Assembly: GCA_947586835.1 (NCBI GenBank)
Contig: CANPXT010000005.1
Coordinates: 3,327-67,326, forward strand
Source: an uncultured Alphaproteobacteria bacterium
GTDB lineage: Bacteria > Pseudomonadota > Alphaproteobacteria > CAAHEQ01 > UBA3637
DNA: 64,000 nt
Direction: 5' to 3'
Shown: positions 3,150 through 63,887 of the stretch, piece by piece
Position numbering within the stretch: position 1 is the first letter of the stretch
Layout of the letters: each line of letters starts with the position of its first letter
Notes under the pieces: generated by a model
What the model saw: the letters and a program-made list of their open reading frames with translations, nothing else
What the model was told of the DNA's origin: nothing
Databases searched by the model: none
Program-made: the position numbers and the translations under genes

Positions 3150-3166
3150 AGTTTGTGAGGTGTATC

Positions 3167-7008: not shown

Positions 7009-7027
7009 ATTTTTTCAAAAAGAAAGT

Positions 7028-9307: not shown

Positions 9308-9362
9308 TTTTTAAAATATATACTATGCTTTTTCTATCAATACTTAAATTAAGGAGAAAAAT

Positions 9363-9794: not shown

Positions 9795-9893
9795 AATAAA
9801 ACAGCCCTTTGCAAACGCTTTTTTTAAATCTCATATAAAAAAAGTCTGGTAATTTTAATTCATTTTTGTTATAGTAAAAGAAAGGGCAGAAAA

Positions 9894-14182: not shown

Positions 14183-16684
14183 TTATCGCACAACAAAATT
14201 AACCAATCGTTTCGGAACATATATTTCTTTGACAATTGTTTTGCCTTCTAAAAAGTTTTGAACGCTGCTCTGTTCTTTTGCCATTCGAATAACATCTTCC
14301 GCCAAAGCATCGGCAGAAACCGTTATCAACGCACGCTTTTTACCCATGACCTGCACAACAATATTCATCGTATCACAAAGCGTCATGGCTTCATCAAACA
14401 CGGGCCATGATTCATAAGCCAGCGAAGCGGTATGACCTAACCGTTCCCACAATTCTTCCGCAACGTGAGGTGCCTGCGGTGAAATCAGCAACACAAAAGT
14501 TTCCATATCGGCTTTTGAAACAGGTTCCGGCGACTTATAAACGGCATTTACAAACTCCATGAGCTTGGCAATAGCGGTATTATAGCTCATCCGTTCCATA
14601 TCTTCGGTAACGCCTTTAATTGTTTTGTGCATAAGTTTTGATAATTCACTGCTGCCCTGATCGGCAATTTTATCAGGCGTTTCAAAAATATTCCATATCC
14701 GACGAATAAAGCGATTAACACCGTTAATACCGTCATCAGACCACGGTTTTTCAGCTTCAATCGGTCCCATAAACATTTCGTATAATCGCATGGAATCGGC
14801 TCCGTAATCACGCACCACATCATCGGGATTAACAACGTTATAGCGTGATTTACTCATTTTTTCAACCTGTGTACTTACTTTTGTTTGTGTATTTTTGACA
14901 AACCACTCATTACCCTTGCGTTCCACTTCGGACGGATAATAATATTTTCCGTTTTCATCTCGATACGAATAAGCCAAAATCATTCCCTGATTGACTAATT
15001 TTTTAAACGGTTCATCACAGGAAACCAAACCGGCATCAAACAACACTTTCTGCCAAAAACGCGCATAAAGCAAATGCAAAACGGCATGTTCCACTCCGCC
15101 GACATAAATATCAACCGGCATCCAGTAAGATTCGGACTCTCGACTCCACGCCTCATGATGATTATGCGGATCACAATACCGTAAAAAATACCACGAAGAC
15201 CCTGCCCATTGCGGCATAATGTTTGTTTCGCGTTTTGCCGGCAACCCCGTTTCTTCATCTATGGTATTCACCCAATTTGTTACCCGTGCCAAAGGCGGCT
15301 CACCGTCAGCCGTCGGTTTAAATTCGGCCAATGGCGGCAATAAAACAGGTAAGTCTTTCATGGGTAAAGACTTGATGGTACCGTCCGCACAGTGAATAAT
15401 CGGAAACGGTTCACCCCAATAGCGTTGACGAGCAAACAACCAATCACGCAATTTATAGTTAACGGTTCCTTTTCCGCACTGATGCGCTTCCAGCCATTCA
15501 ATCATTTTGGCTTTCGATTCTTTCACATGCAATCCGTTTAAAAAATGCGAATTAACAAGGGCACCGTCACCTTCCCAAGCTTCTTTTTCAATATCGCCGC
15601 CTTCAATAACACGAATAATGGGAATATTAAATTTTTTGGCAAAATCATAGTCGCGCTGGTCATGTGCCGGCACAGCCATAATGGCACCGTAACCGTAATC
15701 ACCCAACACATAATCGGCAATATAAATCGGCAGTTTATTACCATTTACCGGATTAATTGCATAAGCACCCGTAAAAGCACCCGTTTTGTCTTTTACATCT
15801 GCCATACGCGCTTGCGCCGATTTATGCGCCGTCGCTTCGACATACGCCTCAACGGCTGCTTTTTGTTCGGGCGCGGTAATTTCTTTCACCAATGCATGCT
15901 CGGGCGCCAAAACACAATAAGTTGCACCGAACAATGTATCGGGACGCGTTGTATAGACCGTAAACTCAGCTTTTGTATCGGCAACTTTAAAACGCACATC
16001 GGCACCTGTTGATTTTCCGATCCATTCTCGTTGCATGGTTTTAATACTTTCCGGCCAATCAACTTTATCCAATCCTTCCAACAACTTTTCGGCATATGCG
16101 GTAATTTTAAGCATCCATTGACGCATGGGTTTTCGAATCACTTCATCACCCGTTTCAACATATTTACCGTCTTTTACTTCTTCATTTGCCAAAACGGTAC
16201 CAAGCTTCGGACACCAATTAACGGGCGTTTGCACTTCATAAGCTAACCCTCTGTCAAAAAGAATTTTAAAAATCCATTGTGTCCATTTATAATATTCCGG
16301 ATCGGTTGTATCAATTTCACGATTCCAATCATATGAAAAACCGACAGATTTTAATTGTTCCCGAAACTTTTTCGTATTCATTTTGACCACATCTGCCGGA
16401 TGCATACCCGTTCGCTCGGCATAACGCTCTGAAGGCAGACCAAACGCATCCCATCCCATCGGATGCAACACGTTAAATCCCTGCATTCGTTTGTAACGCG
16501 CTACAATATCGGATATGGTATAATTTTCCACATGCCCCACATGCAAACCCGCTCCCGACGGATAAGGAAACATATCCAAAACATAATATTTCGGTTTATG
16601 ATTTATTTCCGACCGAAAAGTTTGATTTTCTTCCCAATATTTTTGCCATTTTTTTTCAATTTCCAAATGATTATATTCGCTCAT
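14183..16684 (-). CDS. leuS: Leucyl-tRNA synthetase
   Basis: [12 protein letters not shown] (HIGH) and KMSKS motifs, 833 aa, collinear with bacterial LeuRS. Confidence 0.95.
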
Positions 16685-29040: not shown

Positions 29041-29793
29041 TTATTTTAAATATTCTTCCACACGCTCTTTCAATTGCGTTATGGCTTGCTGACGCGCAAA
29101 TGCATCGGCATTACCCTTTTTCGGATAAACCGTATCCATAAAGGTATTATACGCATCAACCGTTAAGACTTCACGCGCCGTTTCTTGCATTTTGCGCTGT
29201 TTCCAAAGGCTGCCCGTTTTCATCAAAGATGCTTTCTTTTCGGGGGGAACTTGATACGTTTGTAAAATAACACGCGCTTCATTATCTGTTTTATGAACGG
29301 TCGGATAATACCATTTTTGAGCAGCATCTTCCTGTGCTAAAGTTAATAACACATACGGATGCAACATTTCACCTTTAAACGGCATGTTTTTTTCTTTCAT
29401 CACAGCTTGTATTTGATCCATGTATGATGCCAACGTTTCACGTTCGGATTCTTCGGAATCCATTTTCAACAAAACTTTTGCCAATGCTACCTGAGCGGTG
29501 GCATTTCCGTTTTCTGCCGCCAAATGATAAAACAACAACATCTTCATAACATCTTGATGGCTTTGATTTTGCTTATTTTGATAAAAACGCGCCAACCAAA
29601 ATTGCGATTCTTCATCATTTTCATTTACGGCACATTGAGAAAAATCGGCAATTGCCTGTTTCTGATTTCCCTGACTTAATGCCTTTTGAGCTGCAACACA
29701 TTGAGCATAAGCAGGAAAAGCAAATACGCTTGAAAAAATAATTCCAATCGATAAAAGACGGCAGAACGTAAAAATATATTTTATTTTATTCAT
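29041..29793 (-). CDS. Secreted Sel1/TPR-like repeat protein
   Basis: Signal peptide ending AYAQC. Sel1-type units are present (A..W.A..Y, AAENGNATAQVALAKVLL). Confidence 0.65.
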   Translation of the reverse strand: MNKIKYIFTFCRLLSIGIIFSSVFAFPAYAQCVAAQKALSQGNQKQAIADFSQCAVNENDEESQFWLARFYQNKQNQSHQDVMKMLLFYHLAAENGNATAQVALAKVLLKMDSEESERETLASYMDQIQAVMKEKNMPFKGEMLHPYVLLTLAQEDAAQKWYYPTVHKTDNEARVILQTYQVPPEKKASLMKTGSLWKQRKMQETAREVLTVDAYNTFMDTVYPKKGNADAFARQQAITQLKERVEEYLK

Positions 29794-31672
29794 CAAAAAC
29801 AACCTCCACATGACTTACTTGTTCCGGTGCCGGAACAACACTTGAAAAAAAGGCTTGAACGGAATTACCGTCAATTTCCGGTTGAGATAAAATAATGCGT
29901 TTTCGTGCAACCGGCATATCATTTTGATCATAAACAACAGCTTTTAGTTGCGGAATCACAACTTTTGTCAATTCCGTATTGACAACAACGCCTTTAATCA
30001 TCAGACGCAAAACACCTGCTTCATTTTGCGAGATTTCATAAGCAATATCTTGTATTTTTAAAATACGATTTGCTTCGGTTGTGTTGAGTTGTTTAGCTTT
30101 TATCGGCTCACCGACCGTAAAGACAGGATTATTTTCCGTTTCAGTCGTCAATGCTTGCTGTTGCATCGGTGCTTGTATGGATTGTTGCAAAGCTTGCTGC
30201 GGTGTCGGAGCCGACTGCTGCGCCTGTTCTGACTGAGGCACCGCTGCTTGCGGCTGTGCTTCTTGCGACGGCTGTAGCGTCGGCTGTGGCGTCGGCTGTT
30301 GTTGAGGTTGTTGTGCCGAAGATGACGGTTGCAACGACTGTGGCATCGGTTGTTCCGAAACTTTCACCGGTTCCGATGTTGCCTGATCTTTCGAAGGTGA
30401 TTCTTCCGCTGTTTGAGCATTATTTTCCGATGAAGTCGGCTCAGATTCCGATGTTGCTGAGGCTTCACTTAATATGGCTCGCGACAAATGATGTTCGGCT
30501 GCCAATGCAGCTACTTCATTTTCCAAGTTTTCTTCCGCTGCCCCTTGTTCCAATTGTTCATCCAACAATTTCGCTGCTGTTTTTGCTTGTTCGGATGAAT
30601 TTTCCGAATTTAAAGATGTCGGCTGTTGCACCTGTTCCGAAACCGGCTGTTGCGCCTGTTCCGATTGTGACGTCGCTGCTTGCGGTTGTTCTGCTGCTTG
30701 CGACTGTTCTTCTTGCGCCGATTGTTGCGCTTTGGCTTGTTGAGCCATTAATCGGGTTGGCTTCGGTGCTTGTGCCATTTGTTGATTCATGGCCACTTGC
30801 GGAACTGGCTGAACTGCCGATTCCGACTTTGATACCGATTTTGTATCCGCCGGTTGCGTTTCTTGGGCAGACTCTTTGGCACTTGATTGCACTTTTTCTT
30901 CACCGGCTGTCGGTTTTTCCGACTTTATCGGCGGAAGCGACTGAGACTGATCACCCGAATTATTTTGAATCTGTTGAGATGTTTTCGACGTCGGTTGCAA
31001 ATCTTCGGCTTGATTAATTTTGTTATTTTTTTTGACCGAAACAGTTTTTTTCTCTTTCGAAACATAATTTTTATCTAATTTCGAAACGATAAAATCTTCC
31101 GTTTTTTCCATAAACGGATATTGTGTCAACAAATAAAGGGAACCGTAACAAATACCGCCTGCCACACATAACCAGAAAAGCGCACTGATAACGGAAGTTT
31201 TTTTCTTTTTTGTTTCCACCGGTTTAAAAGCTTCCGGCAATGCATCTAACCGATCGGAATCCTGTGGTGTTTCATTGGCCAACAAAGCAAGCGAATCGGC
31301 ATCGGAAAAAATCGGATCCGCTCTTTTGACATTTTGATTTGACTCCGAAAGAGGCGGATTTATATTTTCATTTACTTTATTCGATTCGTTTTTCTCATCA
31401 ATTTTTTCATCGGATTCGGTTGATGATGAATTTATTTCAGGCACCGAAACCATTTCTTCATACTGCCCGCCTGCTTCATTCATCACGGCCGAAACGGTGG
31501 GAATTTCCTCATCTTCCGAGGAAGCATCATCGCCGTAAAACCCAGTCTGACGCTCACTTCTTAAGGTAAAATAGTTTCCACAGGCAGAGCAATGAAACTT
31601 TTGTCCTTCGGGTACTTTAATCTCATCTGAAATGACATATTGTGTAAAACATTTTGGACATATAACTAACAT
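29786..31672 (-). CDS. ZitP-like protein: MJ0042-type zinc ribbon, one TM helix, long Q/P/S/E-rich low-complexity region, DUF3426-like C-terminus
   Basis: MLVICPKCFTQYVISD...FHCSACGNYF (CPxC...CxxC). TM helix VISALFWLCVAGGICYGSLYLL. C-terminal beta-rich domain LRLMIKGVVVN...VEVVF. Confidence 0.6.
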   Translation of the reverse strand: MLVICPKCFTQYVISDEIKVPEGQKFHCSACGNYFTLRSERQTGFYGDDASSEDEEIPTVSAVMNEAGGQYEEMVSVPEINSSSTESDEKIDEKNESNKVNENINPPLSESNQNVKRADPIFSDADSLALLANETPQDSDRLDALPEAFKPVETKKKKTSVISALFWLCVAGGICYGSLYLLTQYPFMEKTEDFIVSKLDKNYVSKEKKTVSVKKNNKINQAEDLQPTSKTSQQIQNNSGDQSQSLPPIKSEKPTAGEEKVQSSAKESAQETQPADTKSVSKSESAVQPVPQVAMNQQMAQAPKPTRLMAQQAKAQQSAQEEQSQAAEQPQAATSQSEQAQQPVSEQVQQPTSLNSENSSEQAKTAAKLLDEQLEQGAAEENLENEVAALAAEHHLSRAILSEASATSESEPTSSENNAQTAEESPSKDQATSEPVKVSEQPMPQSLQPSSSAQQPQQQPTPQPTLQPSQEAQPQAAVPQSEQAQQSAPTPQQALQQSIQAPMQQQALTTETENNPVFTVGEPIKAKQLNTTEANRILKIQDIAYEISQNEAGVLRLMIKGVVVNTELTKVVIPQLKAVVYDQNDMPVARKRIILSQPEIDGNSVQAFFSSVVPAPEQVSHVEVVFDE

Positions 31673-47203: not shown

Positions 47204-47350
47204 TTATTATTCCCTTGTTCAAACGAAAAAGAGTTTATCAAAAAAACGAAAAAAAGGCAATGGAAAATTAAATCGAAAAGACAAGAGGCATCAGTGTTAA
47301 AAAAATGCACTTAAAAAAATACGCCGGGGGTATCAAAATGATGAATAACA

Positions 47351-47384
47351 AAAAATCACCCGTCAATTAACGGGTGATTTTTTT
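47351..47384 (-). terminator. Terminator downstream of the CC-repeat gene (bidirectional hairpin)
   Basis: AAAAA-ATCACCCG-tcaattaa-CGGGTGAT-TTTTTT. Confidence 0.65.
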
Positions 47385-47416: not shown

Positions 47417-49393
47417 TTAATAACACATCGTAGTTGACTGTCTCACCTCTTTTTTCGCGCAACACCAGCTGCCTTTCCATTCGCCATTGGCATTCTCACA
47501 ACATTCTTGTCTTCTCTTCTTGGTTAAAAAATCCTTGGATGAGTCCTTTTCACAACAAATGTTTGATTTTGAGTTCCATGAGGCAGTTATATTTGCTTCA
47601 CAACATTCTTTATCTGGCTTGCCATCATAACTCTTCCCGTTGTTGCAACAGTTTTCTGTATCTATTGCTCCGGTGGAAACATTTATCGACCCAGAGCAAC
47701 AAGTATAGTTGCGACCTATCGAACCAACACCTTTAGTGCAACATTGTGTAGTATACTCTTGAGTTTGCATATTGCGACCCTTATTATCGCAACAAGTACT
47801 TTCAACCCACGTACCGTCTTCAGCGTTACAGCATTTCTCATCAACCATACCAGTTGCTACATTTTTGATACCTTCACAACAAACACCATCATGCCAATTG
47901 CCTTTAGGACAACATGTTTCAGCAGGTTCATCCGTTGCTTGATCAATGATTCCCTGACAACAAATCTGCTCTTGTGCATGCCATTCACCATCACAACAAT
48001 TCTGATCTAGTTGACCGGTCTCTACATTAACACCATCCTTACAACAAGTCTCATTAATCACCGTAGCCTCTTGATCCACTTTCTGACAACATACCGGATC
48101 AACAGTATCTGTTCTCAAATTTTTTATGCCTATACAACAACTCAGAGAGTCCTCCAGCCACGTGCCACCACCAGGATACTTTTCGCAACACTCTTTAGTA
48201 GGCTCTAAAGTAGACGCATCCTTACCTTCACTGTTACAGCATGTAGTACCACCCCAATAATTTGTTGATGTCTCATCTTGCTCACAACACCATACACTCT
48301 GCTGATTTGTATACAAATTAATAGCTGAGTTTTCTTGACAACAAACCCCCGCGTCCTCAATATAAGTCCCACCGTTTTCTTTACAACAAGTACCGTCATC
48401 CTCCAAATCATGATGGGAAACACTTCTTTTCGGTTTATAACCATCACAGCAACCGGCCTTATCAATCTGACCTGTATACACATTCATTGCATTATTGCAA
48501 CAATGCCAACCGGTCCACACGCCACCATAATCTCGACATTTCTTAATATTGTACGGCTCATCATCGGGATCCGAATCATCGGGGTCCGAATCATCGGGAC
48601 CGCCCGGGTCGTCCGGATTATCAGGGTCGCCCGGGTCGTCCGGATCATCCGGGTCATCAGGATCACCCGGGGTATGGCTTTCAAGAGGCACACGTTCATA
48701 TCCCGGTCCCGTTCCGTCATCATCAGCCACACCAAAAGCTTCAGCATAATATAACACCAAAGCATTATGCCCTGCATCTTTAAAATTCACCGTTGATGTT
48801 TTTTCGTTCTTGCCGATTTCTTCTTGCAAAGCTGACCGGCGCACAAACCCGCTGTGAGCATTTTCAAATTTCATACAGTCTAAGTTTTGTAATGCAACAC
48901 AATCCGGCGTCGGATATAAAGTTGTTCCGTTTTTGTCAATACCGGCACAGGTTTCACCCCAATCGCCGCTCTTAATGCTCTCGCAAACTTCTCTCGAAAT
49001 ACCGCGAATTCGAACCGTATATCCCCTATCGTCTTCAATTCGCACCTGAACCGGCGAGCCGATTGCCGTTGTAAAATCATCTTCACGCGTATCATATTTT
49101 GTGGAAACAACCGAGTTCGGCTTGACAACACAGGGGGTTTGAGGAAAACCGTCACACTTATAAACATAATTTTGCATTAACTCAGCCGTTCGGGCACCGG
49201 CCGTTGCCACGCTGAATGCGTGAACCGTTTCATTTTCTTTATAAATTTGCATGGCATACTGTATGCCGACAACACCAATAACGGATAACACGCCGATAAT
49301 CGCCAAAACGCACAGCATTTCAACCATTGAGCGCCCTCTTTCAATTAAATAGATACCGCTCTTCTTTTCGCGTTGATATTCCGACTTTTTCAT
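47417..49393 (-). CDS. Prepilin-like N-terminus + globular domain + Asp/Pro linker + 373-aa CC (vicinal cysteine) repeat array; novel surface protein
   Basis: The ATG at 49393 gives MKKSEYQREKKSGIYLIERG/RSMVEMLCVLAIIGVLSVIGVVG, with Gly at -1, Glu at +5 and a hydrophobic helix. There are 23 CC dipeptides at 9-20 aa spacing, bounded by single Cys residues. Confidence 0.7.
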   Translation of the reverse strand: MKKSEYQREKKSGIYLIERGRSMVEMLCVLAIIGVLSVIGVVGIQYAMQIYKENETVHAFSVATAGARTAELMQNYVYKCDGFPQTPCVVKPNSVVSTKYDTREDDFTTAIGSPVQVRIEDDRGYTVRIRGISREVCESIKSGDWGETCAGIDKNGTTLYPTPDCVALQNLDCMKFENAHSGFVRRSALQEEIGKNEKTSTVNFKDAGHNALVLYYAEAFGVADDDGTGPGYERVPLESHTPGDPDDPDDPDDPGDPDNPDDPGGPDDSDPDDSDPDDEPYNIKKCRDYGGVWTGWHCCNNAMNVYTGQIDKAGCCDGYKPKRSVSHHDLEDDGTCCKENGGTYIEDAGVCCQENSAINLYTNQQSVWCCEQDETSTNYWGGTTCCNSEGKDASTLEPTKECCEKYPGGGTWLEDSLSCCIGIKNLRTDTVDPVCCQKVDQEATVINETCCKDGVNVETGQLDQNCCDGEWHAQEQICCQGIIDQATDEPAETCCPKGNWHDGVCCEGIKNVATGMVDEKCCNAEDGTWVESTCCDNKGRNMQTQEYTTQCCTKGVGSIGRNYTCCSGSINVSTGAIDTENCCNNGKSYDGKPDKECCEANITASWNSKSNICCEKDSSKDFLTKKRRQECCENANGEWKGSWCCAKKEVRQSTTMCY

Positions 49394-49459
49394 AGACCGT
49401 CCCTTTCGTCTGTTCCTTTTAAACGGGAATTTACAATTTTCCCCATATACCTGATTTGT

Positions 49460-49488
49460 ATAATAACAAATTCTGAAAGAAACGTCAA
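49460..49488 (-). promoter_or_regulatory. Sigma70-like promoter (TTGACG-17-TATTAT on the minus strand) for the CC-repeat gene
   Basis: -35 is the reverse complement of 49483-49488. -10 is the reverse complement of 49460-49465. It lies in the 137-nt gap after uppS. Confidence 0.45.
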
Positions 49489-49530: not shown

Positions 49531-50247
49531 TCAAACTTTTTGTTTATTTTCTAAACCGCCATAGCGCCGTTGGCGTTTTTGATACGATTCCAACGCTTCA
49601 TCAAATGCCGTTTCATTAAAATCCGGCCATAAAACAGGCGTGAAATATAATTCCGCATATGCCATTTCCCACAGTAAAAAATTACTGATTCGCTCTTCAC
49701 CGCTCGTACGAATCACCAAATCAGGCGCGGGCATACGAGTCGTTGACAAATGCGCCGCGAAAGTTGTTTCGTCAATATCATCGGGCGTCATCTGCCCGCT
49801 CGCTGCTTTTACCGCCAGTTGACGCGCGGCATTGATTATATCGTCTCGCGCTCCGTAACTGATTGCCAAAACAACGTGAAAACCTTGAAAATCAGCCGTT
49901 TGACTTTCTAATCGATTCATTTGTTCTCTTAAATCAGGCGCCAACTTTTCGCGCGCACCGATAAATGAAACCCGAATGCCCTTTTTTACCAATTCTTTCA
50001 CGTCTTCTTTCAAATAAGCGCGAAATAAATCCATTAACGTTTGCACTTCTTCTTTCGGACGTTTCCAATTTTCCGATGAAAATGCAAAAAGCGTTACAAC
50101 TTCAATGCCTTTCTTTTGCGCATATGTTAAAACTTTTTTTAAAGTTTCGGCGCCCGCTTTATGTCCTGCCGTTCTTGGTAATCCGCGCTTTTTCGCCCAA
50201 CGCCCGTTTCCATCCATAATAATCGCTATGTGCTTTGGTAAATTCAT
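49531..50247 (-). CDS. uppS: Undecaprenyl-diphosphate synthase
   Basis: HIAIIMDGNGRWAK, AFSSENW, RTSGE.R.SNFLLW. Confidence 0.92.
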   Translation of the reverse strand: MNLPKHIAIIMDGNGRWAKKRGLPRTAGHKAGAETLKKVLTYAQKKGIEVVTLFAFSSENWKRPKEEVQTLMDLFRAYLKEDVKELVKKGIRVSFIGAREKLAPDLREQMNRLESQTADFQGFHVVLAISYGARDDIINAARQLAVKAASGQMTPDDIDETTFAAHLSTTRMPAPDLVIRTSGEERISNFLLWEMAYAELYFTPVLWPDFNETAFDEALESYQKRQRRYGGLENKQKV

Positions 50248-55077: not shown

Positions 55078-55860
55078 TTACCGATTTTTCAAATAAGAAA
55101 CCAAAGCTTCAATATCTTGAACTGCCGGTGAATCGGGATAAGTCGTTAAAAACGGCACCTGTTGACGCACACATTCTTTAATATGCGATTCCTGATGAAT
55201 AATTCCTCCCAAAGACAATTCGGTATTTAAAAAATTTTGACAAGCTTTTAAAAGCGTTTGATATGTTCGTTCCCCCTCTTTTTGCGTGTTGGCCATATTG
55301 ACCACCACACTAAACCGCGGCGGTTTCGGTCGTTCAGACAAATATTTCACCAGCGTATAAGCATCGGCCAACGAAGTCGGATCCTCCGTACACACAATAA
55401 GAACCGTCCCCGCCGAACTGCCTAAAAGTGTAATTGTTTTTTCAATCCCCGTTCCTAAATCAATAAAAACATAATCATAATGTTGCGCCAAAATATATAA
55501 ATCATCTCGCAATAATTGTAACTGACCATCGCCTAAAAATGTTGTCGCCGACAGACCTAAATGACCGGATAATACATCACATCCGATGGCAGGGACAAAA
55601 GAAACGGCTTGATTCATCGGTGTTTTGCCCGTTAGCACCTGACCTAAATCATAAGTTGTGTTTAAACCGAGTTGAATATCAATATTGGGTAAACCCAAAT
55701 CACCGTCGACCAACAAAACTTTTTCTCCGCTTGTTGCAAAAGCATGGGCCAACGTGACGGATAAAAACGTTTTACCGACTCCTCCTTTACCGGAAGCTAC
55801 AGCAATAATGTTTTGTCCGTCCAAACGCTCATAAATATTTGAAATATTTTCTTGTGCCAT
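55078..55860 (-). CDS. flhG: MinD/ParA-family ATPase FlhG (FleN)
   Basis: Deviant Walker A SGKGGVGKT, DGDLGLPN. Lies immediately downstream of flhF. Confidence 0.75.
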   Translation of the reverse strand: MAQENISNIYERLDGQNIIAVASGKGGVGKTFLSVTLAHAFATSGEKVLLVDGDLGLPNIDIQLGLNTTYDLGQVLTGKTPMNQAVSFVPAIGCDVLSGHLGLSATTFLGDGQLQLLRDDLYILAQHYDYVFIDLGTGIEKTITLLGSSAGTVLIVCTEDPTSLADAYTLVKYLSERPKPPRFSVVVNMANTQKEGERTYQTLLKACQNFLNTELSLGGIIHQESHIKECVRQQVPFLTTYPDSPAVQDIEALVSYLKNR

Positions 55861-56820
55861 TTAATCATCCTCTCGTTTGTAAAGCATTCCTCGAATAATG
55901 TTATTTAATGTACCACTGCCGGCCTCCAAAAGATAATCCGTTAATTTATTGCTTTTACTCCATCCGCCCCATTGATACGATCCGAAAAGCGCCGTCTGTA
56001 ATAAGCCGCCGACAGAGTGTGCCAAATCTAATTTCGTTCCCAGCAAAACCGTACACCCCGCTTTCGCAAACAATGCACCTTGTGTTTCGGCTTCCTTGCA
56101 ATCAAGACCCGCCTGTTGCGTATAAATCATTTCCGCATCCGAAAGCTGTGTTTTAATTTCGTTAATTTGCGCCAAATCTGCCGGATTATAGGGATTATAA
56201 GCCGGCGTATCAATTAAAATCACATCATGTGATAATCTTAAAACGGTTACGGTTTCATTAAGTCTTGCCAAATCATTCAAACATGTGCAAACAATATTCA
56301 TCCAACCGGCCGATCGTTCCAATTCGGCCGCACCGCATACCTTTTGCCGATCCAGTGTGATACATGCCACTTTTAAGCGGTTGGATTTTGCTTGAAAAGC
56401 CGCTTTGATAAGGGCGGTTGTTTTTCCGCTGCCGGCCGATCCCAAAAAAACATAAACATCATTTTTTTTAAGAGGTGCAATTGATTTATAAACATACATT
56501 TCTTCCAAAGCGGTTACCAACCACTTTTCTTCCGTTAATTTAACGCTTTTACGCGAAAGAGCATTTAAAAGTCGTTCATAATATGAATCAAAAACACCGT
56601 GGGATGCCAACAAATTTTGAAAATAAGCCGCTCGCTTTTGTCGAATTTCTTGATCAAGCGAATTTTGTTCCGGATTATTTTCTTCAATGGCAACAACTAA
56701 CCGAACTTGATGATTGGGCAAACGTCCCGATGAGATAATGACGGCATTTTCGCCGAATGTTTGTTTAACGGCCATCATGGCTTCGGGAATGTTGTCGGCA
56801 AAAAATGTTTTCAGTTTCAT
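55861..56820 (-). CDS. flhF: SRP-type GTPase FlhF (divergent G3 motif)
   Basis: N-terminal MKLKTFFADNIPEAMMAVKQTFGENAVI, G1 GSAGSGKTT, G4 TKLD. The G3 position reads DTPA instead of DTAG. Confidence 0.7.
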   Translation of the reverse strand: MKLKTFFADNIPEAMMAVKQTFGENAVIISSGRLPNHQVRLVVAIEENNPEQNSLDQEIRQKRAAYFQNLLASHGVFDSYYERLLNALSRKSVKLTEEKWLVTALEEMYVYKSIAPLKKNDVYVFLGSAGSGKTTALIKAAFQAKSNRLKVACITLDRQKVCGAAELERSAGWMNIVCTCLNDLARLNETVTVLRLSHDVILIDTPAYNPYNPADLAQINEIKTQLSDAEMIYTQQAGLDCKEAETQGALFAKAGCTVLLGTKLDLAHSVGGLLQTALFGSYQWGGWSKSNKLTDYLLEAGSGTLNNIIRGMLYKREDD

Positions 56821-58700
56821 AACATCTTTCCTTTACATTTTCGGGTATCAATTAACAATTGCGCCCGTTGAATTATTTTGGCTTGAGCTTCTTCGGTTTT
56901 TTGTATGTTTTCAATACCGAAAGCCGTTGTTTTTTGTAAGATTTCAACCCATTTTTTCGGCTCAATCACGCGAACAAAAGCTTCTTTAACGTTATCTCCT
57001 GCCTGACTTAACGCAGCGACCAGCGTTTCTTCATCAATGTGTTTTAAAAGAGTTTTTAAATCTGTTTCGCTCCAAAAGGAAAAGTCATCAAACGTGATGA
57101 GTCGCTTCGACAATATTTCGGCTGTCTGCGGAGCCGTTTGCGCCATATATGACAATAATTTTTTGCGCCGAATTATCTCCGTTAAACTCAAAATGGCAGC
57201 TGCTTTTATTTCACCCGAAGAAACCGGTTTTAACTTTTCATCAATCGAGAAAAAAGAAAAAACAGGCGATTGAAAATCTTCATTATTAAAAGCGCTGATT
57301 CGCAACAAAATTTCTGCCGCCAATCGAAAAGACAACGGCTTTAACACACGCGTTGCTTTTTCTGTTGACAATCGATAAAGAAGCTCAGCCGATGTTTGCG
57401 GATATTCATGCGATAAAAAAGCGCTTATTTTGCTATCAGGCACTTTATTTAATTTTTCCCACAACGATTTTCCGAAAACAGGCTTATTTAACTCTTTAAT
57501 TAAGGCTTGGGCGCGTTCTTTCGTTAAGTTTGCACGCAAAAGCGCTTTTGTTTGTTCTTGAGGCGGAACAATATCTTGCGGATGAAGCATTTGTCGATAA
57601 AAGCGCATTAAAATCGGATGAATATCAATGGCTTTGACACTACCTAATCCGGCTATGATATGTAAAAAGGTTTTCATTTCGGCATCACTCATTTGCTTAA
57701 ACATAAGTTGAACGCACTGATCCCCCAAACAAAGCAAAATAATGGCGGCTTGTTGCGCCGGAGAAAACAAGCTGTCATGGTTTGACTTAAAAGATGAATG
57801 ATCATACAATCGACAGCGCAATGCATTCACGGCAATTTCCGGCATTTGAACACAAACCGTTTGAACACGTGAAATTAAATTTTCTTCAAGATCTCCGATT
57901 ATTTGATGACGAAACATATTATTCGTTTCTTTAGGACGAACAAGTGAAAAATTCATTTTTTTCCGATAATGTCGCATCAGCCACAGCCAACACGCATATA
58001 CCAGCATGACTAATCCGGCAACGGTTATTAAAGCTACTGCGATTATTTGCCGATATTGAATTTTTTGAAAAGCAATCGGCGCAAATGACAAGGCGGACGG
58101 GAAGTCAACAACTTGAAACGTATCTCCTCTTTGCGGATTATACCCAATCATCATTTGCACATTTTTCAACAAATTGTTTTTTTTGAGCTGAAAAAATTGA
58201 TTACGTTGTTTATCAGTCGTTTCTGCAAAAAAAACAAACGCATTTAACTTTTTAACATGATATTTTGTGACTTGCGTCACGATTTTCCGACTTGTCTGAC
58301 CGGGCAATGAATAATTTTCGTTTACCTCATCGACCGACACAGTGGGTGTTACTTTTTCTTCAATCGTTTTCTTTTTTTGAATCTCTAATTCCGCCCGAAC
58401 CACCGCTTTGACGGATTCTTCCCCCAGAAAAGGCACAAAAACGGCTTGAATTTTTTTTTCGAGATACGAATCATATTGCGATTGCAGTAATGTATTTTCT
58501 TTAGGCAGTGATTTTTCGACAATTTGATGAATAAATTTATTTTGTTGAGCAACCGAAGGGACTTGATACCGCAATGACGGCGAAAAATAGCCGATACCGG
58601 CGACAACAAATGCACCGAAAACAATAAAAAAATATTTAACAAGCTTTTTTGACAAAGCGCAATCCCTTAACCAAATTTGATTGCGTATATTTTCGCTCAA
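56817..58700 (-). CDS. Fusion of a truncated FliF (MS-ring, C-terminal periplasmic part plus TM2) with full-length FliG (rotor/switch)
   Basis: FliF-like: YLEKKIQAVFVPFLGEESVKAVVRAELEI ... GYNPQRGDTFQVVDFP ... TM helix. FliG-like: AAIILLCLGDQ, FLSHEYPQTSAELLYRLS..KATRVL, LKTLLKHID.ETLVAALSQAG, EEAQAKIIQ. Non-ATG start (TTG at 58700, or TTG at 58655 after AAGGGA). Confidence 0.65.
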   Translation of the reverse strand: MSENIRNQIWLRDCALSKKLVKYFFIVFGAFVVAGIGYFSPSLRYQVPSVAQQNKFIHQIVEKSLPKENTLLQSQYDSYLEKKIQAVFVPFLGEESVKAVVRAELEIQKKKTIEEKVTPTVSVDEVNENYSLPGQTSRKIVTQVTKYHVKKLNAFVFFAETTDKQRNQFFQLKKNNLLKNVQMMIGYNPQRGDTFQVVDFPSALSFAPIAFQKIQYRQIIAVALITVAGLVMLVYACWLWLMRHYRKKMNFSLVRPKETNNMFRHQIIGDLEENLISRVQTVCVQMPEIAVNALRCRLYDHSSFKSNHDSLFSPAQQAAIILLCLGDQCVQLMFKQMSDAEMKTFLHIIAGLGSVKAIDIHPILMRFYRQMLHPQDIVPPQEQTKALLRANLTKERAQALIKELNKPVFGKSLWEKLNKVPDSKISAFLSHEYPQTSAELLYRLSTEKATRVLKPLSFRLAAEILLRISAFNNEDFQSPVFSFFSIDEKLKPVSSGEIKAAAILSLTEIIRRKKLLSYMAQTAPQTAEILSKRLITFDDFSFWSETDLKTLLKHIDEETLVAALSQAGDNVKEAFVRVIEPKKWVEILQKTTAFGIENIQKTEEAQAKIIQRAQLLIDTRKCKGKML

Positions 58701-61118: not shown

Positions 61119-62573
61119 TTACTTAACAATTTTAGAACATATACATTGATCGTTTCCATAAAAGGCAATCGACCCTTCCGGACAATTGATTTCATCGGCA
61201 CACCGGTGTTCACACACTTTACCAAACACGTTTTCCGGACATTCACATGCGCAGACTCCGTTTTTATAAACAGCTTTTCCGCCATTAATGCAATTAATTT
61301 GATTGGCGCAATTCATTTCGCATGTATCACCAAAATAACCGCTGTAACATTCGCATCCGCAGGCTCCGTTTTTATAAACGGTATAACCGTAATTACAGGT
61401 ATTTGTACATTTTTGAGAACAATCTTCGCCATAATAGCCGTTATAACATTCGCATCCGCATCCTTCCGGTTTATAGACCCGATATCCCGACTTGCAAACA
61501 TTTAAACATTGAAAAGAACAATTCTCGCCGAAATAACCTTGATTGCATTGACAAAAACTCTGTCCGTTTAAATAAACGCGTTGCCCTTGCGGTGCATACT
61601 GAGACGTACCGCACGGCAACAGAGCCATAGATTGCTCACAATTTTTTCCGAAAAATCCCTCTGCGCACTCGCAAAAACCGTACCCGTGTATTTCACCGTG
61701 TCCGCTGCATTCCTGACTTTTATCCGTTAATTCACAACGCCGACCGTAAAAGCCCTCTTGACAATCGCATCCGCCCCCCAGTTTACTTTCTACCGAAGCA
61801 TTATACCAATAAAAATCTTTTCCGTGTCCGTTACATACATCTCCGCTCGGATCAAACTGTTCGCAATGTTCGCCGAAATAACCCATCATGCATCTTTGGC
61901 AACTGCATGTCGGATTAAATTCGACGGCAGTGGCATGTCCGTTACAAAAAGTATCAATCGTACATAATTCCCGCTGAGCCGACACATAGCACCTACCGTT
62001 TGAATCTTGGCTGTCATAACCGGCTGCGACATCGCATTTTTGACATCTGTTTCCGGTATATCCCGGCTCACAAACACATTTTTCACCGTTCCATGTACCG
62101 AAAATCGTACATCCTTCAACATCAGCATCAGCATGTGCGGAAAGATTATTTTTAAACGAGTAAGTAATTGATTCGCACTTTCTGTTCACGATATTCGGCA
62201 AAACTTCATAGGGCAAAGACCAATTCCACGCGGCTAACTTTCGACATTCGTTTAACGACAAACCCTTAATTTGAATCGTAAAGTGATCTTCATACCCTAC
62301 GGCCGTATAATAGTAGCCTGATTTTAAATTTGCGCCTTTTTCCAACACGCTTCCTTCCGTGGGAATCATAGCCATTTGTTGCATACGAATTGAAAAATCG
62401 TTTGATAAAAATTTCAGCTCATCGATTACATTATCACAATGCCGATAAGTCATAAAAAAACTATATGCCCACCAACCAAAGAACAAAACAGCAAACCAAA
62501 TCGCAACCGTACGCACAAAATCTTTGGCAGTCATACCCAATTGTTCAGATTGTTTTTTAAATTGCGCTTTCAT
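61119..62573 (-). CDS. Membrane-anchored protein with eight tenascin/teneurin-type EGF-like repeats (eukaryote-like)
   Basis: AAGGAG RBS lies before the ATG at 62573. TM helix VAIWFAVLFFGWWAYSFF. Repeats: CVCEPGYTGNRC, CDCQEGFYGRRC, CECAEGFFGKNC, CQCNQGYFGENC, CECYNGYYGEDC, CECYSGYFGDTC, CECPENVFGKVC and CSCQRCMMGYFGEHC, several preceded by C.GHG. Confidence 0.75.
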   Translation of the reverse strand: MKAQFKKQSEQLGMTAKDFVRTVAIWFAVLFFGWWAYSFFMTYRHCDNVIDELKFLSNDFSIRMQQMAMIPTEGSVLEKGANLKSGYYYTAVGYEDHFTIQIKGLSLNECRKLAAWNWSLPYEVLPNIVNRKCESITYSFKNNLSAHADADVEGCTIFGTWNGEKCVCEPGYTGNRCQKCDVAAGYDSQDSNGRCYVSAQRELCTIDTFCNGHATAVEFNPTCSCQRCMMGYFGEHCEQFDPSGDVCNGHGKDFYWYNASVESKLGGGCDCQEGFYGRRCELTDKSQECSGHGEIHGYGFCECAEGFFGKNCEQSMALLPCGTSQYAPQGQRVYLNGQSFCQCNQGYFGENCSFQCLNVCKSGYRVYKPEGCGCECYNGYYGEDCSQKCTNTCNYGYTVYKNGACGCECYSGYFGDTCEMNCANQINCINGGKAVYKNGVCACECPENVFGKVCEHRCADEINCPEGSIAFYGNDQCICSKIVK

Positions 62574-62834
62574 ATGCGAACTCCTTATAAACACCTGTTA
62601 TATTCCGTTATATTTGCAAAAAGTATAACACTCATTGGAAAGAGAATCAACAATATATTTCAGAAATCATCATTTTTTTATAACAAAAGCGGAATCAACA
62701 ATTGAATTTTCACGAAAAATCTGTTTTTTTTAAGAATAATCACTGTCTAAAAAGACAGCATACCGAAAATGCATTCGTGATTTTGATTTTCAGTAACAGG
62801 GCACCCGTGCGTTACGATTTTGACAACAACAAGA

Positions 62835-63887
62835 TTAAAACCACCACCAACTTGTTGTCTCTGCCGTTGTAGCCGGAGTGTGCGTAGTTGTGTTGATCGG
62901 CATTGTCTGATTATTATTCGTTGTTGTATTGGTTGTCGTGGTCGTCGTCGTTTTACCTGTAGTAGTCGTTGTGCCCTTTGAATTTGTCGTCGTTGCCCGC
63001 GTGGTCGTTGTTGCCCGCGTGGTCGTTGTCGCACGTGTAGTTGTTGTAGTCGTATGCGTGGTTGTTATCGGCGTCGGCGTTCCCGTTGTCGTTATTGGCG
63101 TCGGGGTTTGCCTGCTCCTCGTTGTAGTCGTATGCGTGGTTGTTATCGGCGTTGGCGTTCCCGTTGTCGTTATTGGCGTCGGTGTCTGCGTGCTCGTTGA
63201 CGTTGGAGTCGTCTGTTCCGGCGTCGTCTGTATCGGTGTTGTTACCGATGTCGTCGATGGCGTCGTAGTCGTCGTTGTCCATGTCGTAGTCGTCGGTGTC
63301 TGCGTTGTTGACGTTGATGTCAGTGTTGACGTTGACGTCGGCGTTTGCGTTGTTGACGTTGATGCCCGTGTTGACGTCGACGTCGGTGTCTGCGTTGTTG
63401 ACGTTGATGTTAGTGTTGACGTCGACGTCGGTGTCTGCGTGGTCGTTGACGTTGGAGTCGTCTGTTCCGGCGTCGTCTGTACCGGTGTTGTTGACAACGA
63501 TGTCGTCGTTGGCGTCGTAGTCGTCGTTGTCCATGTCGTGGTCGTCGGCGTCGGCGTTGTTGACGTTGATGTCCGTGTTGATGTCGACGTTGGCGTCGGG
63601 GTCTGTGTGCTCGTCGTTGATGTCGACGTCGGCGTCGGTGTCTGCGTGCTCGTCGTTGTGGTAGACGTCGGCGTCGGTGTCTGCGTGGTCGTTGACGTCG
63701 GAGTCTGTGTACTCATCGTTGTGGTTGTTCCCCCCGGAGTTGTGGTTATGGTTGTACATTTCCCGTCATAGAATACGTCACCAAGTTCCTTTACTTTACA
63801 ACACTCGTCTAAGCTGTCATAATCATGCTCCTCCGGGTGTTTCAGAACATAGTCGCAATATTCTATGATCAATTTTAATGCTGTCAT
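62835..63887 (-). CDS. Thr/Pro/Ser-rich mucin-like repeat protein (no evident signal peptide from this ATG)
   Basis: The longest frame over the repeat DNA has a non-repetitive N-terminus (MTALKLIIEYCDYVLKHPEEHDYDSLDECCKVKELGDVFYDGKC), then about 300 aa of T/P/S repeats ending SWWWF. Confidence 0.55.
   Translation of the reverse strand: MTALKLIIEYCDYVLKHPEEHDYDSLDECCKVKELGDVFYDGKCTTITTTPGGTTTTMSTQTPTSTTTQTPTPTSTTTTSTQTPTPTSTSTTSTQTPTPTSTSTRTSTSTTPTPTTTTWTTTTTTPTTTSLSTTPVQTTPEQTTPTSTTTQTPTSTSTLTSTSTTQTPTSTSTRASTSTTQTPTSTSTLTSTSTTQTPTTTTWTTTTTTPSTTSVTTPIQTTPEQTTPTSTSTQTPTPITTTGTPTPITTTHTTTTRSRQTPTPITTTGTPTPITTTHTTTTTTRATTTTRATTTTRATTTNSKGTTTTTGKTTTTTTTNTTTNNNQTMPINTTTHTPATTAETTSWWWF
62995..63720. 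repeat. Nested imperfect tandem repeats (units of about 15, 45, 78 and about 250 bp) inside the Thr-rich gene
   Basis: 15 bp x3 near 62995-63040 (TTTRA x3). 78 bp x2 from about 63043 and 63121. 45 bp x3 at 63303-63437 (QTPTSTST.TSTSTT). Long copies of about 105 bp at about 63198 and 63448. Confidence 0.8.

Follow-up and report, generated by a model that had tools for sequence, protein, structure and literature searches.

The gene studied here lies on the minus strand of a 64-kb stretch of DNA, analysed as a whole and referred to as the window. Its product has the make-up of a modular pilin: a pilin module (residues 21-216), a linker (residues 217-285) and a PF24748-positive ladder of paired cysteines (residues 286-658). 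The coding sequence and the signals that flank it are as follows.

47417..49393, minus strand: coding sequence of the modular pilin, 658 aa plus TAA stop (open reading frame list and translation)
49400..49406, minus strand: Shine-Dalgarno-like AAAGGGA, 6 nt 5' of the ATG (read from the sequence)
49460..49488, minus strand: candidate sigma-70-like promoter, TTGACG-17-TATTAT, with 10 of 12 matches and a TG extension
47350..47383, minus strand: intrinsic terminator with a 15-bp stem, a 4-nt loop and a T run, 34 nt past the stop codon

The product is 100% identical to P0001 of the protein collection. An alternative TTG start at 49534 gives a 705-aa reading of the same open reading frame, but the ATG at 49393 is the better start, because the longer reading would take in the promoter-like sequence and extend over the stop codon of uppS. 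The uppS gene (49531-50247) directly precedes the pilin gene, as the first-pass annotation had noted, and the candidate promoter falls in the interval from the uppS stop (49531) to the ATG. Since promoter-like sites were not enriched in the window (8 observed versus 6.0 +/- 2.4 in shuffles), the promoter is a consensus match only; thus, of the promoter and terminator that had been assigned to the gene as its own, the terminator is present, whereas the promoter is reduced to such a match. The position after uppS is common to relatives at two other loci (L001 and L079), and a more distant family member has an unrelated gene context; the earlier remark that many bacteria carry cdsA at this position proved to have no functional meaning. 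Downstream, the terminator is followed by two MFS transporter genes, and neither a recombinase nor alternative cassettes were seen in this 3' flank. The GC content of the ladder (41.6%; GC3, 32.6%) is typical of the window's genes, and with this native composition a recent horizontal acquisition is not supported.

The N-terminal part of the protein carries the following features.

49334..49393, minus strand: leader peptide, residues 1-20, basic and ending in Gly20, which is invariant in 89 aligned relatives
49265..49333, minus strand: class III signal core and membrane segment, residues 21-43 (RSMVEMLCVLAIIGVLSVIGVVG), identified by TIGR02532 and the invariant R21 and E25
48746..49333, minus strand: mature type IVb-like pilin module, residues 21-216, identified by hhalign, profile matches and AlphaFold2

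The N-terminus reads MKKSEYQREKKSGIYLIERG followed by RSMVEMLCVLAIIGVLSVIGVVG, so that the putative cleavage context is ERG/RSMVE, with Gly at -1, Arg at +1, Glu at +5 and a hydrophobic helix after GRSMVE. The hallmarks of a class III signal (Gly -1, Glu +5, a hydrophobic stretch and a basic leader) are therefore all present, and the ATG, the Gly-ended leader and Glu +5 were found exactly where the first-pass annotation had placed them. G20, R21 and E25 are invariant across 89 aligned lineage pilins, and the G-R-S-M-x-E motif is kept without exception in 89 sequences, which belong to a family that numbers over 1,300 proteins; Arg +1, previously called atypical, is thus no oddity in this lineage. 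Type IVb pilins have a long leader, a variable +1 residue other than Phe and a larger size, the pilin domain being about 190-200 aa. The 20-aa leader, Arg +1 and the 196-aa mature module of the present protein place it in this class, leader length being a subclass criterion for type IV pilins (PMC7248040).

Profile comparisons extend the likeness beyond the signal. TIGR02532 (NCBIfam) was passed at 20.2 bits (cutoff 16.3), the Pfam N_methyl score stayed below threshold (13.8 versus 21.2), and the target sequence alone did not reach the threshold for Pfam Bundlin or PilS. When profiles were compared with hhalign, however, the target family matched the lineage pilins that carry Pfam Bundlin and PilS (99.7%, E = 3e-25, 128 columns), and the joint profile matched the solved pilins BfpA (1zwt, 1.6e-9), TcpA (8uhf, 1.6e-6), PilS (1q5f, 5.8e-5) and CofA (9iuf, 2e-4). 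AlphaFold2 predicted a helix at 23-69 and strands at 114-121, 124-130, 149-153 and 211-217, with pLDDT values of 86-96 over most of the head, while a Foldseek search of the whole three-part model against the PDB gave no significant pilin match (TcpB, E = 1.2). On these profile comparisons, the N-terminal ~200 aa are homologous to type IVb pilins, beyond the hydrophobic segment and into the beta sheet, and the earlier prepilin reading, supported by hhalign, the joint profile and TIGR02532, can be widened to this whole region. The globular part, formerly put at about 230 aa, is nearer 150-195 aa after the helix. The protein contains 55 Cys, 7 within the first 173 residues (six of them in the head) and 48 within the last 373.

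The pilin module is followed by a linker that contains a repeat at the DNA level.

48539..48745, minus strand: Asp/Pro-rich acidic disordered linker, residues 217-285 (composition, low pLDDT)
48560..48671, no strand assigned: DNA tandem repeat with 9/18/27-nt units, encoding the D-P repeats of the linker

The linker holds 22 Asp and 14 Pro, has a net charge of -23, and is predicted by AlphaFold2 with pLDDT <50 over residues 220-279. The 39-aa Asp/Pro linker described earlier corresponds to its core of ~39 aa, whereas the whole low-confidence linker spans about 60-69 aa (residues ~217-285).

The remainder of the protein is made up of the cysteine ladder.

47420..48538, minus strand: galaxin-like di-cysteine ladder, residues 286-658 (Cys pattern, PF24748, AlphaFold2)
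47423..47557, minus strand: conserved distal cap, the last three CC rungs and the final Cys (CC-x16-CC-ENANGEWKGSW-CC-x11-C)

The ladder follows the pattern C286-x11-(CC-x9-19)x23-x11-C657, with no stray Cys and a median spacing of 14, which bears out the pattern reported for the last 373 aa except that spacings of 9-19 replace the 9-20 written earlier. Its 48 Cys in 373 residues amount to 12.9%, it is strongly acidic (pI 4.6), it lacks the CxC and CxxC motifs typical of metal sites, and its 23 CC pairs compare with a maximum of 13 in 20,000 shuffles of the tail. Long rungs of 14-16 residues (G-[IV]-x-N-[VL]-x-T-G-x-x-D) alternate with short Trp rungs of 9-13 residues; this alternation of two rung types, reported earlier for the ladder at large, is clear from about rung 8 onward but looser before. 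The orthologues P0002 and P0003 display a very regular 14/8 alternation. The distal cap (spacings 16 and 11, motif ECCExAGGxWKGSWCC) is the only ladder block kept in every relative that bears a ladder, even behind an ordinary signal peptide. No DNA tandem repeat was seen in the ladder region, and an origin by recent tandem duplication was rejected on this ground.

The structure prediction that the first-pass annotation had proposed was carried out with AlphaFold2, and the ladder-only model (mean pLDDT 82.7) displayed a repeating hairpin pattern in its DSSP string, the rungs being predicted with confidence as ordered hairpins (pLDDT 80-93) in a model that contains no metal. This secondary structure and the published galaxin models (bioRxiv 10.1101/2025.02.06.636789) are consistent with the earlier idea of a rigid rod of stacked hairpins that would need oxidative folding. 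No significant match to the ladder model was obtained with Foldseek in the PDB or BFVD, and phmmer against PDB sequences returned only a chance match.

Granulins contain a 12-Cys motif, C-C-CC-CC-CC-CC-C-C, in which a pair of single Cys on either side encloses four CC pairs and the spacings are 4-8 residues; they form a beta-hairpin stack stapled by disulfides from the CC pairs, which link alternate pairs (i to i+2). The first-pass annotation had taken the ladder for an extended granulin-like repeat, but its Cys pattern fails the granulin motif, Pfam Granulin (PF00396) gave no match at E <= 10, and Foldseek against the PDB returned no granulin. The galaxin/calcarin type fits instead. Galaxins and calcarins have been described as containing 10-23 di-Cys motifs at intervals of 10-15 residues, flanked on each side by a lone Cys (bioRxiv 10.1101/2025.02.06.636789), and the ladder fits every item of this description. 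AlphaFold models of galaxins consist of disulfide-linked beta-hairpin rungs. It also passed Pfam PF24748 (Galaxin_repeat) with 51.8 bits (cutoff 28), as did P0002 (30.4) and P0003 (40.8). In a control, however, Cys-fixed shuffles of the ladder scored 34.6-50.4 bits and the reversed sequence 37.7, compared with 49.5 for the native ladder and 154.6 for the galaxin-like P0146, indicating that the match holds no information beyond Cys spacing and that common descent with animal galaxins is unproven. The rung motifs (G-I-x-N-V-x-T-G-x-x-D and G-x-W) differ from those of galaxins, and similarity beyond Cys was not found at the sequence level. For annotation, this control means that passing the Pfam threshold of a family defined by its Cys pattern is uninformative on descent. 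The galaxin-type fold has been reported in animals (coral and sponge galaxins), other eukaryotes and archaea, and our literature search found no publication on a bacterial or pilin-fused ladder of this type; the claim that no bacterial counterpart had been described thus holds, within this search, for the pilin-fused bacterial example, whereas the repeat itself was already catalogued as PF24748.

The profile search that had been suggested for the ladder retrieved 18 proteins among 1.84 billion representatives, one of them the galaxin-like P0146 (E = 1e-4). A single-sequence search with the ladder alone in a 5.8-billion-protein collection returned nothing, not even the query itself, probably because of composition-bias filtering, and cluster look-ups gave no names for the protein family. 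The orthologues P0002 and P0003, the latter at the same uppS-flanked locus, contain exactly 23 CC pairs each, with 43 of 44 and 44 of 45 aligned Cys columns conserved and a non-Cys identity of 26-29% in an alignment that is anchored on Cys. Family members retain the pilin module and swap the C-terminal module, which can be a ladder, a mucin-like Thr/Pro region, a WxxW module or a CxC-rich module. P0004 and P0006, for example, share 98% identity across 246 aa but show no relationship after that point, and their divergence starts inside the linker. This exchange at the linker suggests that the ladder is a cargo that can be swapped, one among several. The same lineage also has ladder proteins whose signals are of the ordinary Sec or lipoprotein kind, and thus a pilus is not needed for ladder function. 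Sister proteins and neighbouring genes carry eukaryote-type modules, namely Mucin2_WxxW and teneurin-type EGF. The mucin-like and WxxW modules of the sister proteins lend some indirect support to the earlier suggestion that the protein may be an adhesin or a host-mimicking ligand. The EGF-rich open reading frame at 61119-62594 was considered as a paralogue of the pilin, but hhalign against the pilin profile gave a probability of 1.9%, and paralogy was not shown.

The first-pass annotation had also proposed a search for PilD, for T4P, T2SS or Tad systems and for Dsb genes. No pilus-machinery gene was found in the 64-kb window, so the connection with a pilus comes from relatives. MAGs of related Alphaproteobacteria from the gut contain a type IVb pilus cluster of the R64/Tcp-like kind: at locus L006, genes for TcpQ, Secretin, PAP_PilO, T2SSE, T2SSF, two pilins and a second T2SSE form a complete cluster that adjoins GRSMVEM-type pilins, and a 560-aa ATPase lies upstream of such pilins in ~40 of 78 loci. 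The combination of TcpQ, secretin and PAP_PilO beside Bundlin/PilS-type pilins indicates a type IVb pilus layout and not a T2SS. At L079, the subfamily member P0010 is located ~7 kb from TcpQ and secretin, with a DsbA-family gene 8 kb upstream. The search thus yielded a type IVb cluster and a DsbA-family gene in relatives but neither in the window, where no Dsb gene was found and a regular expression for DsbA-type CxxC was negative on all open reading frames. A prepilin peptidase (A24) was found neither in the window nor in 1.39 Mb of related loci, whether with GxGD[VI]K or relaxed motifs or by tblastn with a PilD query. The pilin genes of the lineage are scattered in housekeeping contexts, and a literature search on pili in RF32 returned nothing relevant.

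On a slight balance of probability, we propose that the gene product is a modular type IVb minor pilin that displays a disulfide-stapled ladder on a pilus. The class III signal would insert the protein into the inner membrane, and a prepilin peptidase would remove the 20-residue leader after Gly20. The R64/Tcp-like type IVb machine of the lineage, with TcpQ, secretin, PilO, a GspE-type ATPase, a GspF-type platform and Bundlin/PilS-type major pilins, would take up the pilin module 21-216, most probably at the pilus tip, as for TcpB, CofB and PilV, because the appendage is bulky. This appendage would comprise the flexible acidic Asp/Pro linker and the 373-residue galaxin-type ladder with its 24 predicted beta-hairpin rungs, in which, by analogy with the AlphaFold models of galaxins, each hairpin may be stapled to its neighbour by a bond from the second Cys of one CC to the first of the following CC, so that a chain of 24 consecutive disulfides would form in the periplasm. 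The ladder could serve as a protease-resistant stalk of tunable length that holds the cap, ECCExxxGxWKGSWCC...C, off the filament, and this distal cap may bind a ligand on the host, on mucus or on another cell. Across strains, the pilin module would stay and the C-terminal module would be exchanged at the linker.

We consider it unlikely that the pilin-like protein instead stays in the envelope, as an inner-membrane anchor with a periplasmic ladder or as a T2SS-like pseudopilus cap. Such a location would be consistent with the lack of a secretin or ATPase in the window, with the scattered housekeeping contexts of the lineage pilin genes and with the names 'type II secretion system protein' and 'PulG' that some databases give to relatives; however, the lineage cluster with TcpQ, secretin, PAP_PilO and Bundlin/PilS-type pilins has the type IVb layout, and a 373-residue acidic rod on a flexible linker, like the mucin-like modules of sister proteins, suits the cell exterior. 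The invariance of G-R-S-M-x-E in 89 sequences, the size of the family (>1,300 proteins) and a pilin homology that reaches into the beta sheet make it very improbable that the N-terminus is an ordinary Sec signal or anchor (cleavage near VVG43/IQ) of a secreted or anchored protein with no pilin link, even though Pfam N_methyl was below threshold, ladders behind ordinary signal peptides exist and searches of the window and of the 1.39 Mb of related loci gave no prepilin peptidase.

Different accounts of the tail itself were also weighed. That the ladder is a true galaxin homologue, acquired from a eukaryote and mimicking a host extracellular-matrix protein, is suggested by the PF24748 match, by the reach of the ladder profile to P0146 (E = 1e-4) and by the Mucin2_WxxW and teneurin-type EGF modules in sister proteins and neighbours, but Cys-fixed shuffles score near the native ladder and far from the true galaxin-like P0146, the rung motifs are unlike those of galaxins and the GC and GC3 values are typical of the window. 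Galaxins are not known from mammalian gut hosts, which also counts against this origin, and we regard it as quite improbable. There is also little likelihood that the CC pairs are reduced thiols that ligate metal in a metal-binding or redox-buffering tail suited to an anaerobic gut: the pattern C...(CC)n...C gives each Cys a neighbouring partner, as in galaxins, the hairpins are predicted as ordered (pLDDT 80-93) without metal, CxC and CxxC motifs are lacking, and a DsbA-family gene lies near a relative's locus, against which can be set the Cys content (12.9%) and strong acidity of the tail and a presumably anoxic habitat, given the gut-MAG origin. Finally, we give almost no credence to an extended granulin/epithelin-type module; both would be hairpin stacks held by CC disulfides, yet the ladder has one single Cys per end and spacings of 9-19, compared with two per end and 4-8 in granulins, and the Pfam (E <= 10) and Foldseek PDB searches gave no granulin match.

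If the modular pilin reading is true, the galaxin-type disulfide-ladder fold extends to bacteria, an extreme architecture is added to the modular-pilin concept, and a tractable system becomes available for the folding of 24 consecutive disulfides and for rod function. It would also suggest that an abundant but uncultured gut lineage has a type IVb pilus whose eukaryote-like tips can be exchanged, a matter of interest for attachment in the mucus layer. A wider proposal, possible but doubtful, is that this gut Alphaproteobacteria lineage has a type IVb pilus cassette system, in which a conserved pilin carrier is recombined at the acidic repeat linker with eukaryote-like modules (galaxin-type ladder, mucin-like Thr/Pro, WxxW and EGF) to tailor host-mucus attachment. 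Under this proposal, bacteria would have invented the galaxin-type ladder independently, or might even be an ancient prokaryotic origin of a fold that has until now been assigned to biomineralisation or the matrix in eukaryotes (and archaea).

Compared with known ladder proteins, the tail resembles galaxins and calcarins in its 23 tandem di-Cys motifs, the upper end of their range, with flanking single Cys and spacings near 10-15, in a repeat unit of ~30 aa that holds two di-Cys motifs, in an acidic domain ahead of the repeats, as in Amgalaxin-like proteins, and in its predicted beta-hairpin rungs and probable extracellular location. It differs in being bacterial and fused to a pilin instead of a Sec signal peptide, with its own rung motifs and no link to biomineralisation. 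With granulin/epithelin (PF00396) it would share stacked beta-hairpins and disulfides from CC pairs, but not the number of CC pairs (23), the spacings, the single terminal Cys or the predicted connectivity.

There is established precedent both for modular pilins and for type IVb minor pilins at the pilus tip (PMC8179133, PMC7248040, PMC9045228). The modular type IV pilins PilB and PilC of Streptococcus sanguinis, described with a dataset of 264 architectures by Raynaud et al. 2021 (PMC8179133), likewise link a pilin module to a non-pilus module for display by the filament, although the cargo here is a ladder instead of a vWA or lectin module, the pilin is of type IVb in a diderm host, and the linker is acidic and ~69 aa long instead of a short loop. 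TcpB of Vibrio cholerae, CofB of ETEC and PilV of R64/TP114 differ in that the C-terminal part of the present protein shares no sequence or significant structural similarity with theirs (TcpB, E = 1.2) and that its gene lies outside a pilus operon. The arrangement of a PilV-type shufflon adhesin, with sfx-flanked 3' cassettes and rci, was not seen in the 3' flank, which holds the terminator and two MFS genes; in contrast to PilV, the gene has neither a shufflon nor a recombinase beside it, and the C-terminal variation occurs between strains, not within a clone. Like TcpB, CofB and PilV, however, the protein would be a large type IVb minor pilin with a constant pilin N-terminus and a C-terminal domain that may bind, and just as the C-termini of PilV vary while the N-terminus is kept (PMC9045228), P0004 and P0006 share a 98% identical N-terminus and carry unrelated C-termini.

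We read the target gene from the ATG at 49393, which has AAAGGGA 6 nt on its 5' side; an alternative TTG start would give a 705-aa protein, crossing a promoter-like site and overlapping the uppS stop. The gene and its product are laid out as follows.

47417–49393, minus strand: target coding sequence, 658 aa, start ATG at 49393
49488–49460, minus strand: sigma-70-like site, TTGACG-17-TATTAT with TG extension, consensus match only
47383–47350, minus strand: terminator with a 15-bp stem
Residues 1–20: basic leader ending in Gly20
After the leader, to residue ~216: RSMVEMLCVLAIIGVLSVIGVVG (Arg +1, Glu +5) and then the head
Residues 217–285: linker of 69 residues with 22 Asp, 14 Pro and a net charge of −23
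Tail: 373 residues with 48 Cys

The first-pass annotation gave the gene its own promoter and terminator. Both elements are present, but the promoter is a mere consensus match, because the number of such sites (8) is close to that in shuffled sequences (6.0 ± 2.4). The DNA encoding the Asp/Pro linker is a tandem repeat of 9-, 18- and 27-nt units (window 48560–48671), the linker length is probably polymorphic, and residues 220–279 were disordered in the AlphaFold2 prediction.

The prepilin signature proposed at first reading (Gly −1, Glu +5 and a hydrophobic helix) was borne out. The target passed NCBIfam TIGR02532 (20.2 versus a cutoff of 16.3) and scored below the cutoff of Pfam N_methyl (13.8 versus 21.2), and G20, R21, E25, L30, G34 and L36 were invariant in an 89-sequence alignment. 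Therefore, Arg +1, previously described as atypical, is the rule in this lineage rather than an oddity. A search with the profile of the subfamily head returned 1,350 proteins, mostly ~220-aa pilins with Pfam Bundlin (PF05307) and PilS (PF08805) matches, some of the 1,350 being named PulG, PilE or T2SS protein by the source databases. Profile–profile comparison of this head with the Bundlin/PilS pilins gave a probability of 99.7% (E = 3e-25, 128 columns), with the match running from the helix into the beta sheet (GYTVRIRGISxEVCExIKxGxWGE versus AFxIEYxGLSxEACVTxATGDWGSG), and the joint profile matched the solved type IVb pilins bundlin (1zwt, 1.6e-9), TcpA (8uhf, 1.6e-6), PilS (1q5f, 5.8e-5) and CofA (9iuf, 2e-4). 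The AlphaFold2 model of the target, built from the 89-sequence alignment (mean pLDDT 77.3), contained a helix at residues 23–69, a four-strand sheet (pLDDT 86–96) and a confidently modelled ladder. From these comparisons of sequence and profile, the N-terminal module is very probably homologous to pilins. Within the membrane helix, Cys28 (window 49310–49312; MLCVLA) is shared with the relative P0005, and nearly all other relatives have Gly (MLGVLA).

The tail was found to follow the pattern C286-x11-(CC-x9-19)x23-x11-C657 with zero stray Cys, its 23 CC pairs exceeding the maximum of 13 obtained in 20,000 shuffles; the ladder of two alternating rung types originally described is thus present, with spacings of 9–19. 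Rungs of 14–16 residues with the motif G-[IV]-x-N-[VL]-x-T-G-x-x-D take turns with shorter ones of 9–13 residues that contain Trp, giving a two-rung unit of ~27–31 aa. As the ladder DNA is not repetitive, its rungs are old and diverged. The relatives P0002 and P0003 have exactly 23 CC pairs each, and family members have between 7 and 33. In alignments with these two relatives, 43/44 and 44/45 Cys columns were kept at a non-Cys identity of 26–29%, a contrast somewhat overstated because the alignments were anchored by Cys. The cap, comprising the last three CC rungs and the final Cys (spacings 16 and 11; ECCExAGGxWKGSWCC...GGMC), recurs in all ladder proteins, whether fused to a pilin or not. 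The varying number of CC pairs and the retention of the last three rungs suggest a stalk of variable length, tipped by a conserved cap with a functional or fold-nucleating role. Structure prediction agreed with the proposed ladder: the ladder-only AlphaFold2 model (mean pLDDT 82.7) repeated a strand-turn-strand hairpin in each rung. Foldseek found no significant match to this model in PDB (best E = 9.6) or BFVD, and phmmer found no solved relative among PDB sequences.

The ladder had been compared with granulins, in which each end carries two single Cys and the four CC pairs have 4–8-residue spacings. The target differs on all of these points and has no Pfam Granulin match; we therefore rejected this identity, and a granulin-like tail is hardly credible. 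The galaxin pattern fits instead. Galaxins and calcarins have 10–23 di-Cys motifs spaced 10–15 residues apart, plus a lone Cys on either side at a comparable distance; each di-Cys opens a short beta-hairpin and is bonded through its first Cys to the second Cys of the hairpin before it, so that the disulfides make up an unbroken backbone (bioRxiv 10.1101/2025.02.06.636789). In the number and placing of its Cys, the target ladder matches this description on every item. Two further features are paralleled in corals, namely the ~30-aa galaxin repeats with two di-Cys each and the acidic domain preceding the repeats of Amgalaxin-like proteins (PMC2726143). A galaxin-type hairpin ladder is thus likely, in which neighbouring CC pairs would, by analogy with galaxins, be disulfide-paired. 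The tail might alternatively be a Cys-rich metal binder with reduced thiols, which we judge very improbable beside the predicted hairpin rungs. The target, P0002 and P0003 all passed PF24748 (Pfam Galaxin_repeat; 51.8 bits for the target, cutoff 28), and this match was controlled by shuffling non-Cys residues with every Cys fixed in place.

PF24748 scores of the ladder and its controls
Native ladder: 49.5 bits
Four Cys-fixed shuffles: 34.6–50.4 bits
Reversed ladder: 37.7 bits
Two full shuffles: no match
P0146, a real galaxin-like protein: 154.6 bits

Because the Cys-fixed shuffles scored near the native ladder, the Pfam match speaks for identity of the Cys pattern only, and shared ancestry with animal galaxins is unproven. 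A search with a profile of the ladder, akin to the rung search suggested in the first-pass annotation, matched only 18 of 1.84 billion representative proteins at E ≤ 0.001, and the ladder is very rare in current databases. Apart from the known family, the matches were a handful of others, one of which resembles a eukaryotic galaxin (E = 1e-4). An origin of the ladder from a eukaryotic galaxin, with a role in mimicry, could draw on this resemblance; with rung motifs peculiar to the bacterial family, and GC (41.6%) and GC3 (32.6%) typical for the window's genes, we regard it as improbable. Five of the proteins outside the known family (P0138, P0139, P0141, P0142 and P0147) combine the same C-terminal cap with ordinary Sec or lipoprotein signals, and one protein of this kind clusters with a protein named from an Alphaproteobacteria MAG. 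In a related locus, L079, a CC-ladder protein of 619 aa (14341–16200), which has an ordinary signal peptide and likewise ends in ...GSGGMC, lies two genes downstream of the pilin-fused subfamily member P0010, so that in this lineage the ladder is a self-standing extracellular module. A 120-aa TrbC-family gene, TcpQ and a secretin follow this ladder gene within 10 kb. A plain Sec signal is thus known on ladders, but for the N-terminus of the target, with its invariant G20 and E25, it is a very unlikely reading.

The pilin-head profile matched >561 stretches, and 78 loci were kept, several often coming from one genome. Almost all were from uncultured gut Alphaproteobacteria MAGs of rabbit, deer, ruminants and humans, a lineage that probably corresponds to GTDB order RF32, and one was from 'Proteobacteria bacterium CAG:495'. 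The full N-terminal ~220 aa were common to 17 proteins, and the sequence after this domain differed.

Modules found C-terminal to the pilin head
CC ladders: P0002–4, P0007–8, P0013–17
CxC/CC-rich repeats: P0010–12
Thr/Pro mucin-like tracts: P0005, P0006, P0009
Mucin2_WxxW domain: P0009

P0004 and P0006 had 98% identity across residues 1–246 and no similarity thereafter: a short CC ladder follows in one, a Thr/Pro-rich tract with a few CC pairs in the other, and the divergence point falls within the acidic linker. This break indicates that the carrier stays constant while C-terminal modules are exchanged by recombination. In locus L001, the orthologue P0003 shares the flhF-flhG-secA-...-uppS context of the target, and a more distant family member has an unrelated context. 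P0009 (L081, 10001–13225) joins the same head to Thr/Pro tracts and the eukaryote-type Mucin2_WxxW domain (PF13330), and among the proteins encoded next to it are Ank/Sel1-repeat and Chlam_PMP-like ones.

Several other window genes were recorded.

61119–62594, minus strand: 491-aa ORF, N-terminal membrane segment then many EGF-type Cys repeats; Pfam EGF_TEN (teneurin EGF) 50.8 bits, under the cutoff of 65
62835–63887, minus strand: 350-aa ORF, almost all Thr/Pro/Ser mucin-like repeats, no Pfam match; GC 53%, highest among window genes
56817–58700, minus strand: 627-aa ORF matching YscJ_FliF_C (residues 138–201) and three FliG domains (residues 313–618)
55078–56820: flhF-like and flhG-like genes, after the preceding ORF
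12617–14122, plus strand: ankyrin-repeat protein, by eye
29041–29811, minus strand: Sel1-like repeat protein, by eye

EGF_TEN also occurs in the lineage pilins P0087, P0091 and P0136; the 491-aa ORF itself had no significant hhalign match to the pilin head (1.9%). P0005, P0006 and P0009 have Thr/Pro tails that the 350-aa ORF resembles. The 627-aa ORF appears to be either fused FliF and FliG or FliG joined to a FliF of unusually small size, and the last two ORFs would, by eye, be further eukaryote-like repeat proteins in a host-associated genome.

The genome check for pilus and Dsb genes gave a divided answer: no such genes were found in the 64-kb window, but machinery and a DsbA-family gene were present in relatives' loci. 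A cluster conserved in the lineage, at 1580–11718 of the related locus L006, encodes, in order, TcpQ, Secretin, PAP_PilO, a 435-aa protein without assignment, a 560-aa T2SSE ATPase, T2SSF, two Bundlin/PilS pilins and a second T2SSE ATPase (321 aa), possibly for retraction. This order is the R64/Tcp-type type IVb pilus layout. The 560-aa ATPase lies 2–4 kb upstream of a GRSMVEM-type pilin in ~40 of the 78 loci. In L079, P0010 directly follows uppS, like the target, with TcpQ and secretin ~7 kb away and a DsbA-family gene 8 kb upstream. The L006 cluster has no A24 prepilin peptidase gene and none was found in 1.39 Mb of fetched related DNA, which is the main gap of the pilus model.

The analysis establishes that a pilin module of type IVb is followed by an acidic, disordered linker and a ladder of galaxin pattern, that the lineage has pilus machinery, and that modules are exchanged while the carrier stays constant. 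We propose that the target would be inserted into the inner membrane and cleaved after Gly20, that periplasmic oxidation of the ladder would form 24 consecutive disulfides, and that the protein would be incorporated as a minor pilin, probably at the pilus tip, displaying a protease-resistant stalk whose cap may bind a ligand. TcpB and CofB (PMC7248040) and PilV (PMC9045228) are large type IVb minor pilins at the tip, and exposure at the tip is expected of modular pilins generally (PMC8179133). We slightly favour the whole chain, a modular minor pilin displaying a stalk; tip display itself we hold more tentatively, at a little under even chances. Retention in the envelope, or capping of a pseudopilus, would accord with the T2SS names of some head relatives and the lack of a secretin or ATPase in the window, but it is unlikely given the type IVb pilus layout of the lineage's gene cluster. 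For the displayed minor pilin, a role as spacer or adhesin in the gut mucus layer fits, because the sister modules with mucin-like Thr/Pro tracts are also extended and stalk-like.

Our literature search found no paper linking galaxin repeats with pilins and none on bacterial examples. The target is of interest to pilus biologists and to students of galaxin origins but does not represent a system of a new category: a published catalogue of modular pilins lists 264 architectures (PMC8179133), and the di-Cys ladder is already catalogued in Pfam and reported from animals, other eukaryotes and archaea.
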